Part shown: piece by piece, positions 3,001 through 59,790 of the stretch | How positions within the stretch are numbered: the stretch's first letter is position 1 | How the letters are laid out: every line of letters begins with the position of its first letter | Assembly: GCA_951406725.2 (NCBI GenBank) | Contig: OX597820.1 | Location: forward strand, 105,028,001 to 105,092,000 | DNA: 64,000 nt | Direction of reading: 5' to 3' | Origin: Octopus vulgaris | Taxonomy: Eukaryota | Translations under genes and position numbers: made by a program | Notes under the pieces: generated by a model | What the model was told of the DNA's origin: nothing | The model's input: the letters and a program-made list of their open reading frames with translations, nothing else | Database searches by the model: none

Positions 3001-3594
3001 AAGCCCCAAGACTTGGAAGCAAATATTTTAACCACACGGCCATATCCTATAACCATGCATGCACCTTTTTTTGCAACATAGACTTACTCAAGCTTTATCA
3101 ACAATACCTGAGGCCCCTTTTAAATTGTTTGGGACAATCAGTATACTTTCATTTTCATACAGCTGTTGTTGCTCTTTAACCTCAGAATATCCTATGTTGA
3201 GCAGACCTTCCCATTTTTTCATGAAGAGCATGATTAGTATCTAAAACTACATTGTCCATTGTACCCTGCTTTTTCTCATTCTACAAAGGGAAAGTGTGCT
3301 TTGAGAGAAATGTAGTTACTATTTCTAGCAGGTTAATAAGCTATATAGAGGCCCCTTCCTACTGCTTTCACTCTTCATATTGGTTTCACATTTTGGCATT
3401 TCGGGGAGTGGAATTAAGTCGATTACATTGACCCCAAAAGGATGAAAGGCTAAGTCAACCTCAGCAGAATTTGAACTCAGAACTTAAGGACAGAGGAAAT
3501 GCCACTAAGTATTTAGTCCGAGATGCTAATGATTCTGCCAGCTCATCACTTTCCCCCACTCTTAACACTAAGTTAAAAAGAAATGAAGAGAAAA

Positions 3595-4610: not shown

Positions 4611-5127
4611 GATATCATCATTATTTTATGACTGCTTCCATGCTGGCATAGACAGGATGCTTGAACAATATCTAGCTGGTTGAACGACAATGTTTTCTTC
4701 CAATGCCCCTTTTTTTGTCCTAGTCTCAATGGCAAGATACCTTTCCTAACACCAGCCACTTGACAGAGTGCACTTTTCTTTCCAGCACAATATATGATGT
4801 CATGCCATCAGCAAGACTAAAGAGTTCTCTCAGGCCCTGTGTTGTCACAGTTCGGATTACTTAGAATGTACTGAGTGCTTTCTGTGGTACCAGCACTGTT
4901 GGAGACACCTTAGCCTGTAAAGCTAAAGAGAGTAGCCTATGACCGATTTTGAGAGGAGTGGAAGTGACAAAGGTGAAGAATGGGAAAGGATAATGTCAGG
5001 GATTAGTGTTTTGAATTTTTTATAAACATATTTTTGCAATTATCTGATAATGAAAGCATAAACTTGCCCAAATGCATCAATAAATTAACATTGATACTTT
5101 TTTTTACTGCTGTTACAACCATCTGAG

Positions 5128-6078
5128 ATGGGACCATCAAAGCGCGATATTTGAGCAATTTTACTATTCAACTCCAAGAAAAGGACGTAAAGCAGCTGAA
5201 ACTGCTCACAACATCAACGAAACATTTGATGAGCAAATAACCTGTGAGTGGTCAGCTCGAAAATGGTTTAAACGATTTCCCAGTGGAGACCTGAACCTTA
5301 AAGATCTTGAGCGTAGTAGATACCCATTTCTCACCAATGACAGTCAATTAAAGCCTGCCATTGAGAAAGATGCATGTAAAACCACTTGAGAACTGGCAAA
5401 AGAACTTCAAATTAGCCAGAAAACTGTCTGCAATTATTTGCATGCAATCGGAAAATCAAAAAAGCTCGATAAATGAGTACCACACGATTTGAATGAAAAT
5501 CAGAAAATGCGCAGACATGAAATTTGCTTGTTGTTTCTTCTCCATAACTAAACTGATCCATTTCTCAACCGTATTGTAACTTGTGATGAAAAGTGGATCC
5601 TGTACAATAATAGAAAACGTTCTTCACAGTGGTTGGACCAAAATGAAGCACTGAAAACCTTCCCTAAACCTTCAAAAAGGTTATGGTGACTGTTTGGTGG
5701 TGTACTGCTGGAATCATTCACTATAACTTCTTAAAACCCAGAAAAACCATTACTGCAGAAACATATTGCCATGAAATTGCCAAAATGAACAAAAATCTGC
5801 TACTCCTTCATGACAATGCTCAACGACACGTTTCACTAAGGATGCTCCAGAAACTGAGGGAACTTGGCTATGATGTTCTTCCCCACTCAGCTTATTCCCC
5901 AAACCTTTCTCCTACTGACTACCACAGTTACAAGCTCTATGATGGTTTCCATCAACAGAAAGAGTTCAAAAATCAAACCGATGCTGAAAGTGCATTCAAA
6001 GAGTTCATCAGCTCCAGAACTCCAGATTTTTGTCACCAAAATAAACAAAATTGTAACTCATTAGCAAAAATGTACTGA
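5128..6078 (+). pseudogene. Decayed mariner (Hsmar1/Mos1-like) transposase
   Basis: Reads ATG 5128 ...KAAETAHNINETF... (HTH), *VPHDL (WVPHEL motif), IVTCDEKWILYNN, MVTVWW, LLHDNA, HSAYSPNLSPTDYH (YSPDLAP motif). Several stops, frameshifts and small deletions. Confidence 0.93.
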
Positions 6079-18460: not shown

Positions 18461-18627
18461 AAAAGTTCTGAGATGGGCAGAATCATTAGAGTGTTGAATA
18501 AAAAGAAGTTTTTATTTGCCACAAGGGCAACTGATAAGGGTAGAGTACAAAAACAAAATACAAAATAGTGCAAAGTTCACACAGAATTGGTTATGAAAAA
18601 AGAAATGGAATAAAGAGAAAAACCTAC

Positions 18628-18799
18628 CTCGTGATCCTTCAATGAGCTTCTTCCTAGCAGGGGCTGAAAAAGGGTCTCCCCGCAGCATATCCGAAGCCTG
18701 GAGGAGCAGAATAGAAGCATCTTCGACACGGCTGAGCGCTGGTGGCATATCTTGTTTGAGAATCTGGTCTTCACTGTTGTTAATGGTATCATAACCAAC
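18628..18799 (-). CDS. VCL: Vinculin, next coding exon (probably exon 3), 172 bp, phase 0/1: VGYDTINNSEDQILKQDMPPALSRVEDASILLLQASDMLRGDPFSAPARKKLIEGSR(G)
   Basis: ORF 18512..18748 contains MPPALSRVEDASILLLQASDMLRGDPFSAPARKKLIEGSRG, a vinculin head D1 sequence. Acceptor ctgcag at 18800-18805, donor gtaggt at 18627 and down. Length is 57 codons plus 1 nt. Confidence 0.96.
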
Positions 18800-19679
18800 C
18801 TGCAGACAATTGCAACATCCACTTTAATTATGTTTAATGTGGTTCAGAAGCATGATAAAACATGATTGAATCACACACACACATACTCATATACAGAGAC
18901 ACATACATACAGAAAAATGTGGACACAAATACACACAAAAATGTTTATCCTCTCTTCTATAATGCTTGTTATGCCTGTCTTTGTTAAATCATTGCTAAAA
19001 CATTATCTTCATGTAATTTAAAGAAGTGGTTGCAGTGTGATGGTATATCAACAGAGTTTAAAAGCTATGAAGAGAAGTTCAAATTCGGTAACTCTCCTAT
19101 TCTTTTCCATTCATTGAAAATTACTTCTGATTCTCATTGAAATATAATTATGAATGTCTACAAGGCAACAAATGTCGTACTTATACAGTGGTAGGATGTC
19201 ATGACATTCATATCCCCATCATCATCACTTAGCATCCATATTCTTTGCTGGCATGGATTGGATGATTTAACAGGATCCGACAGGTCGGAGGACCATGTCA
19301 AGTTCCAATGTCTGTTTTGGCCAAGTTCCCACAGTTGGATGCCCTTCCTAATGATAATACTTAATAGAGTGTACTCAGTGCTTTTTTGTATCACCAGCAT
19401 TAGTGAGGTTGCCAAACAGCTTGCAAGACAAAATGCCTTACCTGAGAGAGAGGATGAGGTGACTTTATACCAGGTATTGGAAGGCAAGAGTATGATAGTG
19501 AAATAGGAACTGGTGTGTTGCTCTAGAGAAGATGCATATCTACCCCAGTTAGAAAAGGAAAGATGGTGGTGATGAGGTGGCAGGACATACCCCCAAGGTA
19601 GAAGAGAATGAATGTGAGGGGGATGGGGACAAAAGATACCTTCTCCAAAAAGCTTTGATAGTTTAAGCAGAACAACAGT

Positions 19680-27232: not shown

Positions 27233-28514
27233 ACTACTACTACTACTACTCCTACTGCTACTACTACTACTACTAATAATAATAACAATCATAATAATAA
27301 TAATAATAATAACAATAATAATAATGATAAAAGCAACTAAAGGATAAAAATAACAGAAAAACAGTAATTACTCTTATTTCTTTGTTTTTTTTTATACAAC
27401 AAAAAAAAAGTAAAACCAAGTTGATAGAAAGTGTAGAGTATTGCATTAATCTTGATATTTCTCCACTGGGAAAATGTTGGCTCATTTATTGACACATTTC
27501 TCAAATTATCCAATGAAACTGTTAACAATTAATTAGGTAATTAAGTTTAGTGCTCTAGCTTATTGCCATCACTTTCCATTCCTCTGTGATCAGAAAAGTA
27601 AATATCAATAAAAACTTACAAATTACACAGTTTTAGAGGAAGAGATTTAATTTGTTGAATAAGCAAAAGATATTCAGAATTAGAAGCTCAATATACTTTC
27701 AGATGAGACATTAGCTTACTTACACTTGGCTAATTTCTGTGAATTTCTGTTTGACTGAGTCAAGTATTGAATTTGTAATGGTTTTTATGAAGAGTTAGAG
27801 AATATATGTAGTTAAGCGAAATAGAAGAAAGGGGCTTGCCAGAAGCCAACAGTGGAATATTAATGTTTTAGTGTTCTGATGTATTAATGAGATGCTAGAT
27901 AAGTGTTTCCCCTGAAGTTTTATAGCTAATCTCCAACTCAGTCAAATAACTGTTTTTCAAAAACCCAGCCTAATTCCCTAAACAGTGAATGATTTCCAAA
28001 CCTAAGAGACAACAAATATGAAAATGTACATATATCACCAACAGAAAGCTTTTAAGAACTAATGCTCGGCTTCAGTTCCTTGGCATTAGAAGACAAGAAA
28101 GTAAACTCTCCAGGAGTAGAACTGGTATATTTCAGATAACATTCCCTGACGATCTAATACCTAGTCTCAACAGCAAGGTAAGCTGGGATATACACAACTG
28201 TGTTATCATTATCATCACCATCATCATTCAACATCCATGGGTTGGATGGTTTAATGGCTGACAGGAACTGGCCAGCTGGAGATCTGTCTAGGCTCCAATT
28301 GTCTGTTTTGACCTGGTTTCTATGGTTGGATGCCTGCTCTTCCTAATGCCAACCACTTTACAAAGTATGTTGGGTGCTTTTTTACATGGCACCAGCACAA
28401 GTGCATTGTATGTGACACTAGCATGAGTGCATTTGACATGGCACTAGCACCTGCAAGACAAAGATCTCTCAGCTGGGAGATGGAGTAAGAGTATGGCCAT
28501 AAAGGACATATCTG

Positions 28515-30460
28515 TCAGGCACTGAATAACATCTCTCCTCCCCAAGCCTTACCCCACATTCCTTTCCCAGTTTTCAGAGTTGGCACTGTCAATGTAGGCA
28601 CACTGAAAAGTATGTCTAGTGAGATTGTAGAGATGCTTGAAAAGAGACGGGTTGATGTATGCTGCATACAAGAGGTAAGATGGAGAGGAGCTTCAGCTAG
28701 GGTCCTCACAGGCAAGGCACATAGGTATAAAGTCTTCTTGCAAGGTAACATGGCTGGAGTAGGGTGTGTAGGCATACTCCTTGCAGAGAAAAAGGTGGAT
28801 AAGGTCATAGAGGTTGTCAGGGTATGTAATAGAGAGCTTATGCTCAGGCTAGTCCTGCAGAACAGCACAGCTACAATTATCTCTTCCTACGGCCCACAAG
28901 TGGGGCTACCAAATGATCAGAAGGACCATTTTTATGATACCCTTCTACAGGCTACCTCAAAGATGAGTAGCAATGACCTCACATTTGTGGCTGCAGATTT
29001 TAATGAGCATGTTGGGTGGAAATCCAGTACCTTCACTGGTGTACACAGGGGCCATGGTATTGGTTCCTGGAACGATGAGAGAACTAGGCTACTGAAGTTC
29101 TGTGATGCATATAACCTTTCAATCTGCAACACTAACTTCAGGGAGCCAGACAGCCACCTTATAACCTATCAATTGGGGGACTCCGCTAGCCAGATTGATT
29201 TCATCCTCACCAACAGTGGGACACAGGGTTGCTCTTAAATACAAAGACCTTCCCAGGTGAGGAATGCACTCCTCAGCATAGACTAGTCATTAGTGAATTT
29301 TGACTAGAGATCAGGAGGATGCCAAGAAGCAGACCAATCCAGAAGAGAAGGATTTGGAAGCTAAAGAACCCTTCACATGGTCAGAGATTTAGGGACATCC
29401 TCATCAAGAAATTTGATGAGAGGAAGGAGGAACTACAATCCTCGGACATAGAAGGTAGCTGGAAATTTTTACGGGACAGCTTACTGAGTGCCATACACCA
29501 AGTCTGCCGATGGAGCAAGGTCCCTTCCAGACCTAGAGCAATATGGTGGTGGAATAATACAGTAGACAAAGCCATCAGAGCAAAGAAACAGGCCTAGAAA
29601 GCAACGTGAGGACCAAAGAACTGAGGTATTCCAGATTGCAAGACAGTGTGTGAGAGAAAATTGTGATGTCACAGGAGAGAAAGGTGTCCACATGGATGAT
29701 GGTGCACTTGCTTTTAATGATTTGGAAAAGAAAGCGGCTGGGAGGAGTCATTATGAGAAACTGCTGAATGTGGAGAATGAATGGGAGGAGGAGAGCCTGC
29801 CAAATGTTGACCCAGTAGAGAGACCAGCTATCCAAATAGGCAGTACCCTGGTAGATAAAGCAATTAAGGATATGAAGCCAGAAAAAGCTCCCGGCCCATC
29901 AGGAATCACTGCTGAGATGCTTGAAACATCTGGTGGTGTGGGCTATGGCCTAGTCACCCATATAATAAACCAGGTAGTTCATGATCGAGTTATACTCAAT
30001 GACTGATGTAGCAGCACCATAGTCAACTGTTATAAAGGTTAAGGTGATACTTTAGATAGAACTAACCATAGAGGTATCAAACTGCTGGACCAGGTGATCA
30101 AGGTCACGGAGAGGGTCATATCTCAACTAATTAGGGATAGAGTCTGCTTAGATGAGATGCAGTTCGGTTTTGTGTCCAGTAAAAGTACCACTGATGCTAT
30201 ATACCTGGTACAGCAACTGCAGGAGAAATACCTAGCCAAAGATAAACCCCTATATTTGGCTTTTGTAGACTTGGAGAAAGCCTTTGACAGGGTCCCCCGA
30301 TCCCTTATCTGGTGGGCGATGCAGAAACTGGGGATTGACGAATGGTTAATAAAGGTTGTACAGGCCCTATACAGAGATGCTGTTAGTAGGGTTAGGACTG
30401 GAAGTGAGTATAGTGAAGAATTCCGGGTAGAATAGGAGGTCCACAAGGATCAGCCTTCAG
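28515..30460 (+). mobile_element. Decayed RTE-clade LINE: AP-endonuclease plus N-terminal half of RT
   Basis: APE motifs VGTVNVGTL, VCCIQEVRW, ADFNEHVG and SQIDFIL. RT motifs KAPGPSGITAEML, HRGIKLL, QFGF, AFVDLEKAFDRVPR and GGPQGSA. Stops and frameshifts; the RT breaks off before YADD. Confidence 0.95.
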
Positions 30461-30926: not shown

Positions 30927-31034
30927 CTTAACCAAATTGTCGACGGCCATTTTGACAGCTTGTACTGGCCGAGCCAAATCAGGCATGGCGTTTCCATCTT
31001 CAGCTTCTTCATGTAGAATCACAAGTTTGGAAAC
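30927..31034 (-). CDS. VCL: Vinculin, internal coding exon (probably coding exon 2), 108 bp, phase 0/0: [36 protein letters not shown]
   Basis: Translated by hand from the minus strand. Closely matches the invertebrate vinculin N-terminus that follows MPVFHTKTIESIL(D/E)PVAQQ. Polypyrimidine acceptor ttcttattttttcag at 31035 and up, donor gtaatt at 30926 and down. Joins in frame to the 18799 exon. Confidence 0.96.
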
Positions 31035-58392: not shown

Positions 58393-58463
<71 letters not shown>

Positions 58464-58568
58464 GGAGTAAACACATAAATGTGAAACAAGGTGGAAAAAA
58501 AAAGAGTACTCAAATACCAGTGGTAGAGTAATATGCTTTATTTTAAGCAGCAGAAAATTAAACAAAAT

Positions 58569-58606
58569 CTGTTACTCTGAGTTTCTCGTTGCCGTTCATC
58601 AGACAG
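58569..58606 (-). ncRNA. Identical hammerhead motif on the minus (vinculin-sense) strand
   Basis: Exact reverse complement of 58623-58660. Confidence 0.75.
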
Positions 58607-58622
58607 TTTTTGCTAGCAAAAA

Positions 58623-58660
58623 CTGTCTGATGAACGGCAACGAGAAACTCAGAGTAACAG
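58623..58660 (+). ncRNA. Type I minimal hammerhead motif with canonical CUGAUGA/GAAA core
   Basis: CTGT-CTGATGA-ACG GCAA CGA-GAAA-CTC A GAG-TA-ACAG. GNRA-capped stem II with A.A at 10.1/11.1. Confidence 0.75.
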
Positions 58661-58692
58661 ATTTTGTTGAATTTTCTGCTGCTTAAAATAAA

Positions 58693-58726
<34 letters not shown>

Positions 58727-59790
58727 GTATCTGAGAGACACCACCATGCCGAAATAGTAGTCAAATCCCTGACTCTAAAAACCACCTAAAATGTTCATAT
58801 TGCACCACGAGATAAGACAGAAAGATAAGACAGAAAGATAAGACTTGATAATATCGATATTTAAATATCGATATTATCCTTATTTATAAATTTATATATA
58901 TGTATATATCCACACATGATGAACTTCTTTCAGTTTCTGCATACCAGATCCATGCACAAAGCTTTGGTTCACCTGGATCTACAGAAGACTTGCCTACGAT
59001 GCCAAAACCATGTGTTTCAAAAAGAAACTTCTTAACCATGCAGTCATTCATGTACCTAAAAGTAAACGTTGCAATACCAGGAATCAAACCCAGGCTGCCT
59101 GGATTAAAGTCAGGAAGTATAACTACTGGCATGTAGTAACAAATTTAGTACATTACTTTTATTTGCTGAAGAATTTACTGTTCCATTCCAGTGATCAAAA
59201 TTTAGGAGTTTTCAGATCAAACCTAATTCCAAACCAATCAATGATAATATATCAAATTACTATATATGAAATAATATCTTTATTTAATTAGTATGCAATA
59301 AAAGGGCAAAGCTAATAGACAGTAATTTACAAATGCTATAAGCACTGGCATGCCAGAATACATTCGCAGAAGTTTTCCCACACATATACATAGCTATGTG
59401 TACACATGAATATAATCATGCATTCACTGAAATCATATATACACACACAACTGGCTCTCTATCAGTCACAGTGATGAGTGTTCTAGTTGATCCAAACAAA
59501 GGAACTGCTGGCTTGTGAAATTAAAGTGCAAGTGGCTGAGAATTCCAGACATGTGCACCCTCAATGCAGTTCTCAGAGAAACTCAGCATAACACAAAATA
59601 TGACAAGGCTGGCCCATTGAAATACAGGTGTTCCTCAGTTTTTCCACCTGAGTGAACTGGAGCAACATGAAATAAAGTGTCTTGCTCAAGGAGATAATGC
59701 ACCACCAGGAATCCACCTTAACAGCTTTACAATCAAAAGCCAAATACCCTAACCCCTAAGCCATGTGCCTTCACATATACACATACATAA

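Follow-up and report, generated by a model that had tools for sequence, protein, structure and literature searches.

Head-to-head Penelope-like terminal repeats in a vinculin intron of Octopus vulgaris: a palindrome probably laid down by two primings, one per strand

Intron 1 of the Octopus vulgaris vinculin gene contains a long palindrome that spells out a hammerhead motif on each strand, which raises the question of what this insert is and how its two halves came to face each other. Within the window (the whole 64,000-nt stretch of DNA that was analysed), the palindrome consists of two 84-nt arms, 58531-58614 and 58615-58698, which are 98% complementary, have no spacer and mismatch at two pairs (58535/58694 and 58560/58669). 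The outermost 5 bp of each side set element CATAT opposite target TATAT, a TA microhomology, leaving an element-derived palindrome of 158 bp (58536-58693, 79+79); the 74 nt to its left, 58462-58535, have no mirror on the other side. The hairpin fold reached -140.5 kcal/mol (z -24.8; 0 of 200 shuffles equally good), and the runner-up among non-simple perfect palindromes in the window had arms of only 16 bp.

The insert sits in a (TA)n target, with the left part at 58398-58461 and the right part at 58694-58723. Counting positions from the hammerhead cut site, as is done throughout for the pseudo-LTR (pLTR) of the parent Penelope-like element (PLE), the unmirrored 58462-58535 is the PLE tail on the - strand (+37..+107), in which a T-run exceeds that of most copies by 3 nt; in autonomous copies this tail stands ahead of the ORF leader. 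Arm 1 (58536-58616, - strand) is pLTR -44..+36, sense on the vinculin strand, with one private substitution at 58560. Arm 2 (58613-58693, + strand) is the same pLTR segment with no tail. The ends at 58462 and 58693 are the putative reverse transcription start sites 1 and 2, respectively. Both arms share the CTAG at 58613-58616, a microhomology that forms the head-to-head junction and lies 3 nt inside a 5' wall at -47. The two hammerhead motifs point outward. Copy 1 (58569-58606, - strand) has its core at 58602-58596 and a predicted cut after 58573, between 58573 and 58572. Copy 2 (58623-58660, + strand) comprises helix I at 58623-58626/58657-58660, the core at 58627-58633, helix II at 58634-58643 (A.A at the base, 2 bp and a GCAA loop), GAAA at 58644-58647, palindromic helix III at 58647-58655 and H17 at 58656, after which the cut is predicted.

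Vinculin is encoded on the - strand, with an exon at 18512-18823 (PDB vinculin match, E 4.6e-17) and a second near 31000 (motif scan). The insert lies in intron 1, because the first coding exon sits beyond the window, about 74 kb away (L207:8273). A first-pass annotation made from the letters had already proposed the spacerless palindrome, the outward hammerheads on both strands, the (TA)n flanks, an inverted pLTR of PLE origin, a type I hammerhead with a palindromic helix III and a vinculin intron, and these readings held. Other features in the window include broken LINE-like endonuclease and reverse transcriptase frames within the vinculin gene (28489-30435, + strand; labelled by reading the translations), and broken frames of a mariner-like transposase at 5084-6078 (+ strand). 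About 120 bp from the insert, three 13-bp direct repeats are followed by a separate perfect 32-bp palindrome (58810-58878, with the palindrome at 58847-58878).

Longer copies of the insert sequence lead into an autonomous element, so that the genome search for copies linked to an RT/GIY-YIG ORF, which the first-pass annotation had proposed, recovered a parent. It is organized as pLTR, 71-nt tail, leader, 727-codon ORF (711 aa from the first Met), a 3' UTR of about 1 kb and a second pLTR, with a unit period of 3,335-3,371 in 21 of 22 tandem arms (3,365, or 3.36 kb, for the parent). The single ORF encodes a reverse transcriptase (RT) followed by a C-terminal GIY-YIG-type endonuclease, domains that were assigned from motifs (YRDD at 360, GVVY at 596-599 and YTG at 614 of the parent protein, P0001); a Pfam search of P0001 returned 0 families. 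A representative search gave 20,590 unnamed relatives, the best at 58% identity. In the open literature, as distinct from subscription papers and Repbase, no paper describing this Octopus vulgaris PLE family was found.

The parent protein bears Hydra-clade motifs, a clade assignment made by motifs against Hydra proteins as given in the text of Craig et al. 2021 (PMC8557442). P0001 carries RWK at 53, DKT at 129 (DKG changed to DKT), CxCx5C at 578 in place of CX2-5CxxC, which is absent, and CxxC at 683 and CxH at 711 around the conserved E and N; it lacks CCHH and any cysteine between GVVY and YTG. For GxKF/Y, a motif that Hydra-clade PLEs do not conserve, there was a loose match, GNKY at 67. 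The same RWK, DKT, CxCx5C and CxxC/CxH, the lack of CCHH, the C-terminal endonuclease and the (TA)n target are described for Hydra-clade PLEs in that text, and the octopus insertions likewise lie in (TA)n and carry a hammerhead in the pLTR. The octopus unit of 3.36 kb differs from Hydra-clade units, which are said there to be "generally <3 kb". Hydra-1_Obim is not the octopus family, given its different hammerhead and a protein visibly different in a by-eye comparison with the published material. A Neptune label was dropped; the protein motifs matched Hydra.

The hammerhead has the type I features CUGANGA, GAAA, NUH (GUA) and helix I, together with a palindromic helix III that is predicted to form an 8-bp self-duplex with a central mismatch (-7.4 kcal/mol) and whose central base varies among A, T, C and G in relatives. 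Minimal PLE hammerheads as described by Cervera and de la Peña 2014 (PMC4209133) share the type I motif in the pLTR and the dimer-type palindromic helix III; the octopus motif differs from them in lacking G10.1-C11.1 and in its short helix II and long helix I. Its helix II is 2 bp above an A.A mismatch that occupies the place of the consensus G10.1-C11.1 pair, and among 604 matches with a different base at 11.1 most belong to older subfamilies, in which the pair is A-U. The first-pass annotation had treated this mismatch as damage in need of repair, which it need not be: U.U occupies 10.1/11.1 in 14 of 25 Hydra-clade hammerheads in the supplement of PMC8557442. In the coral hammerhead Hydra-2_aMil from the same source, helix I, the core, the helix III stem and the cut site are identical to the octopus motif, whereas helix II is a paired 4-bp stem of wholly different sequence. 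We therefore file the motif as Hydra-type rather than as a consensus minimal hammerhead.

Across 23 copies, 82.5% of stem cells were paired, versus 29-50% when the stems were slid. Set against shuffles, the covariation score gave 18/500 and the other measures 92-228/500, not above shuffles; the search pattern had itself imposed the core and helix III. Folding predictions have the monomer misfolded (-13.0 versus -7.4 kcal/mol). Rfam returned no hammerhead family among 62 matches at E<=10, and its best-ranked matches were to microRNA hairpin models and fell short of the gathering cut-offs. Hammerheads of other PLEs cleave poorly by themselves and require a dimer or protein, as reported in the accessible parts of PMC4209133 and Frangieh et al. 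2024 (PMC11167929). Judged from sequence, the octopus hammerhead belongs to a motif conserved in the clade, has a weak helix II and is a putative ribozyme.

The arm sequence has 4,585 exact matches in the genome, the exact CTAG centre occurs at 144 loci, and 2,196 matches carry other sequence upstream. The vinculin locus is itself ordinary; the value lies in the family, whose thousands of young copies allow models of formation to be separated. Ends were mapped in the first 100 of the 4,585 matches, all within 0-63 Mb of C1, one stretch of one contig. Outer ends fell at two start points in 97 of 100 arms, 51 at +34..+41 (the class of 58693) and 46 at +108..+112 (the class of 58462), with 1-5 nt of TA microhomology included; three ORF-leader letters were retained at 7 of the 46 tail-side ends. 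Inner (5') ends were more spread, with 35 at -43..-49, 26 at -6..-41, 3 at -50..-100, 36 beyond -188 and none at -5..+3, and on this last count cut RNA as a linear template was rejected. Just upstream of the cut site 180 matches differ, many by small deletions, with no pile-up. An assembly artefact was likewise rejected, since the ends are consistent, the junction types are numerous, and contigs of two other runs also contain joints between opposite strands.

The 100 arms represent 65 loci. Both arms were visible in 51 (a hand count, with one partner taken from end mapping), and in the other 14 the flanking DNA examined contained a single arm or just part of its partner. In 48 of the 51 two-arm insertions one arm started at about +37 and the other at about +107, and not one paired two starts of the same kind; the remaining 3 had an odd start (+27, +58 and +67). 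Arm lengths were also matched, with 36 short/short, 13 long/long, 2 intermediate and 0 short/long pairs, the last expected about 20 times if lengths were independent. At +28 the allele agreed between arms in 43 of 43 cases (29 A/A, 14 T/T), which points to a single RNA, or a single source locus, behind both arms. The tail-less arm extended 5' of its partner by more than 5 nt in 19 insertions and the tail arm did so in 13, the other 19 being within 5 nt or indistinct; arms failed to overlap in 4 pairs, and each arm held sequence absent from the other in 19 of the 51. Neither arm can thus be a general copy of the other.

Short arms stop at the -47 wall and long arms continue past it. Of the first 100 of 790 matches, 63 ended at -47 (hand count); in a control set drawn from 1,878 arms that extend to -51, none of the first 100 ended there and about 6 did so within the next 11 nt. 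The wall falls at the A of what we take to be an initiator-like YYANWYY word, kept in two subfamilies. It also coincides with the outer edge of helix I and could therefore be structural rather than a transcript start. A G at -48 was present in 28 of the 63 truncated arms, and only about 4 of these were unexplained by the partner arm, so that a cap-derived G is suggestive at most. In older subfamilies, 2 of 20 loci were joined at TTAA in this position. Separately, older subfamilies at L030:1720-1800 and L156-L175 have the same two outer ends and an A-U at the helix II base, and many are also stubs. At L226, an inverted tail-only piece is joined to a tail running into the ORF, with no hammerhead between.

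The insert represents two 5'-truncated PLE terminal repeats placed head to head in (TA)n, and we consider it likely that they arose in one event with two separate primings, one on each strand. The RT/GIY-YIG protein would nick both strands of the (TA)n target, and reverse transcription would begin at two internal sites of the RNA, one at each edge of the tail. Given an uncut transcript with its 5' end at -47, the cDNAs would run off after about 85 and 155 nt and their 3' ends would join through microhomology, yielding a spacerless palindrome where the join falls on CTAG, which would be favoured because it is self-complementary. The two nicks, the two internal starts, the run-off and the joining are read from the pattern of genomic copies, using exact matches only, and from in vitro work on an anole PLE. 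One RNA copied twice and two RNAs of one source locus would leave indistinguishable copies.

In L1 twin priming, each of the two target strands supplies a primer, and the product contains an inverted 5' piece attached through microhomology; the second L1 site varies in position and the pieces share no sequence, whereas both octopus sites are fixed and the arms usually overlap. The closer precedent is the anole element Poseidon PAc, in which, according to the available text of PMC11167929, both strands were cut and extended in vitro, two internal RT starts bound the tail, and uncut RNA served as template with no need for hammerhead cutting. Poseidon PAc belongs to another clade, and its start sites were the same on both strands, as opposed to one of each per octopus insertion; that text leaves inverted insertions unexplained. 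Opposite-strand hammerhead pairs, like inverted pLTRs, tails and junction palindromes, have been published before, and the contribution of the octopus copies is a genomic test of how they form. Typical insertions of endonuclease-bearing (EN+) PLEs share the head-to-head inverted copy, the tail at one end only and the junction palindromes (Arkhipova et al. 2013, PMC3846280; Craig et al. 2021, Fig. 2 legend), and differ in having tails of 30-40 nt versus 71 nt and in that the extreme ORF-less form is the commonest product of the octopus family. Cervera and de la Peña noted "dual min-HHRs 100-700 bp apart on opposite strands"; the octopus pair is about 25 nt apart. The accessible parts of PMC3846280, PMC8557442 and PMC11167929 state the origin of inverted and tandem PLE insertions and the role of the hammerhead as open, and the open literature, again as distinct from subscription papers and Repbase, yielded no paper that explains PLE insertions by twin priming.

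Such junctions have been interpreted in print as the result of self-priming (PMC3846280, as far as its accessible text goes), in which one cDNA, or an antisense RNA as proposed there, folds back and is copied into the inverted arm. Perfect palindromes with alleles common to both arms fit this reading, as does the single private change present on both arms at L090. A copied arm must, however, fall within its template arm, and the tail-less arm reached further 5', and without the tail, in the 19 insertions noted above; the 4 pairs without overlap are equally awkward for it. Fold-back is thus unlikely as the source of these inserts; the arm geometry fits two primings, and two fixed starts, one per strand, favour twin priming over fold-back as the usual way in which the inserts are made. 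Some exact palindromes, among them the vinculin insert, may even so have arisen by fold-back.

The long copies bear on which RNA is used. The genome contains 70 tail-to-leader junctions, of which 30 were examined; 25 had a hammerhead upstream, none of these (0/25) stopped at -43..-49, and 6 extended at least 1,377 nt further. Among the junctions listed, no locus had two in the same direction. In the 22 tandem arms, the upstream repeat differed from its own downstream unit by 42 substitutions in 16,282 nt (0.26%), compared with per-arm medians of 0.4-1.6% against other loci, although some other locus was closer in 9 of 22. One tentative explanation, which we hold to be possible but the less probable outcome, is that there are two RNA templates and that the hammerhead chooses between them, with the uncut capped transcript giving palindromic stubs only, because RT would start 85-155 nt from its 5' end, and cut, re-ligated circles giving long or more-than-unit copies. 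Such a scheme would account for short arms pairing with short ones and long with long, for the wall missing from tandem copies, for the ORF-leader letters found at 3' ends and for upstream repeats being closer to their own unit than to other loci. If true, the PLE hammerhead would gain a job, and ribozyme activity could be read from the genome as the ratio of stubs to long copies. Template jumping from one pLTR to another, or multimeric RNA made by read-through, offers an alternative, and young parents with matching repeats would look similar to the products of a circular or multimeric template. Such templates were proposed for PLEs earlier, in the part of PMC4209133 available.

We then considered whether the palindrome moves as a unit, since the first-pass annotation had called it a tiny non-coding PLE derivative. 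A short palindromic element that is non-autonomous, with a master copy as the source of its RNA and the PLE enzyme to mobilize it, would account for the identical centre at 144 loci and for the best 30 genome matches being near-identical 234-bp units in (TA)n, and non-autonomous PLEs such as MRC1 are known (PMC8557442, main text). This reading is nonetheless very improbable. The exact centre appeared in only 6 of the 51 two-arm insertions, the junctions otherwise forming a continuum in which CTAG is commonest, and it occurred with +28A, +28T and a third allele set, i.e., in three source subfamilies with alleles matching on both arms; the same three sets are found in copies reaching upstream of the wall. 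In 49 exact-centre copies (30 of them chosen for closeness to the window copy), variants common to several loci sat on both arms, and one-arm variants within the arms were singletons, none recurring between loci. ORF-leader letters end 2 of the 49, and a stub in (TA)n could template these only if they were inherited; multi-kb insertions, moreover, are bounded by the same two outer ends. No fixed structure inherited as a unit, of the MITE, fold-back or MRC1 kind, was found. Judged from these copies, the insert is not an independent mini-element and instead consists of two 5'-truncated pLTRs of a young 3.36-kb PLE, with the stub probably dead on arrival. Non-LTR retrozymes (PMC7229834; bioRxiv 10.64898/2026.07.22.740005; parts accessible to us) are likewise short, non-coding and PLE-related with a type I hammerhead, but they are same-orientation tandem repeats and the octopus insert is an inverted pair. 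A second exact-centre palindrome of another subfamily lies about 730 bp from the first (L081/L140:690-924). Several stubs occur in a row with the same junction at L105:1426-1972 and L158, possibly through local duplication or repeated priming. The flanks of L006 and L008 show another repeat's ends in the same (TA)n runs, presumably a second hammerhead-bearing PLE family.

The first-pass annotation also described a self-masked ribozyme. The masking itself is borne out by prediction, the vinculin-sense hairpin folding at -133.9 kcal/mol versus -7.4 for the catalytic monomer fold, a margin of more than 120 kcal/mol. The purpose implied for it is unsupported, and masking is a geometric by-product; both hammerheads are passengers that the hairpin is predicted to lock away once the intron is transcribed. 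That the hairpin was retained for a host role, as an ADAR/Dicer substrate or a switchable ribozyme regulating vinculin, is the least credible reading considered, and hardly to be entertained: the pre-mRNA would form the hairpin (predicted fold), palindromic repeats are heavily edited in frog and Penelope massively so in lizard, and octopus dsRNA and editing are unusually abundant (accessible parts of PMC5625713), yet the copy is young (one substitution and a longer T-run relative to the family), the intron is roughly 100 kb, the insert is one among about 1,500 similar stubs (extrapolated from the arm census) and the locus shows no sign of selection.

Incidental use of the hairpin by ADAR or Dicer is plausible. 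The family seeds introns with ready-made 80-bp hairpins and would be a likely dsRNA source if the host edits RNA heavily. A-to-I traces in genomic copies were sought and rejected, A>G changes in 225 arms lying mostly at two subfamily sites. Contigs of four putative RNA runs cover the pLTR, tail and ORF start, with no visible starts or ends. At L067:4678, hammerhead position 11.1, G made up 14-27% of contig depth in the four runs and 6 of 218 sampled genomic arms; editing is not callable there because A>G is also a genomic allele. Position 11.1 is the family's most variable core-adjacent site.
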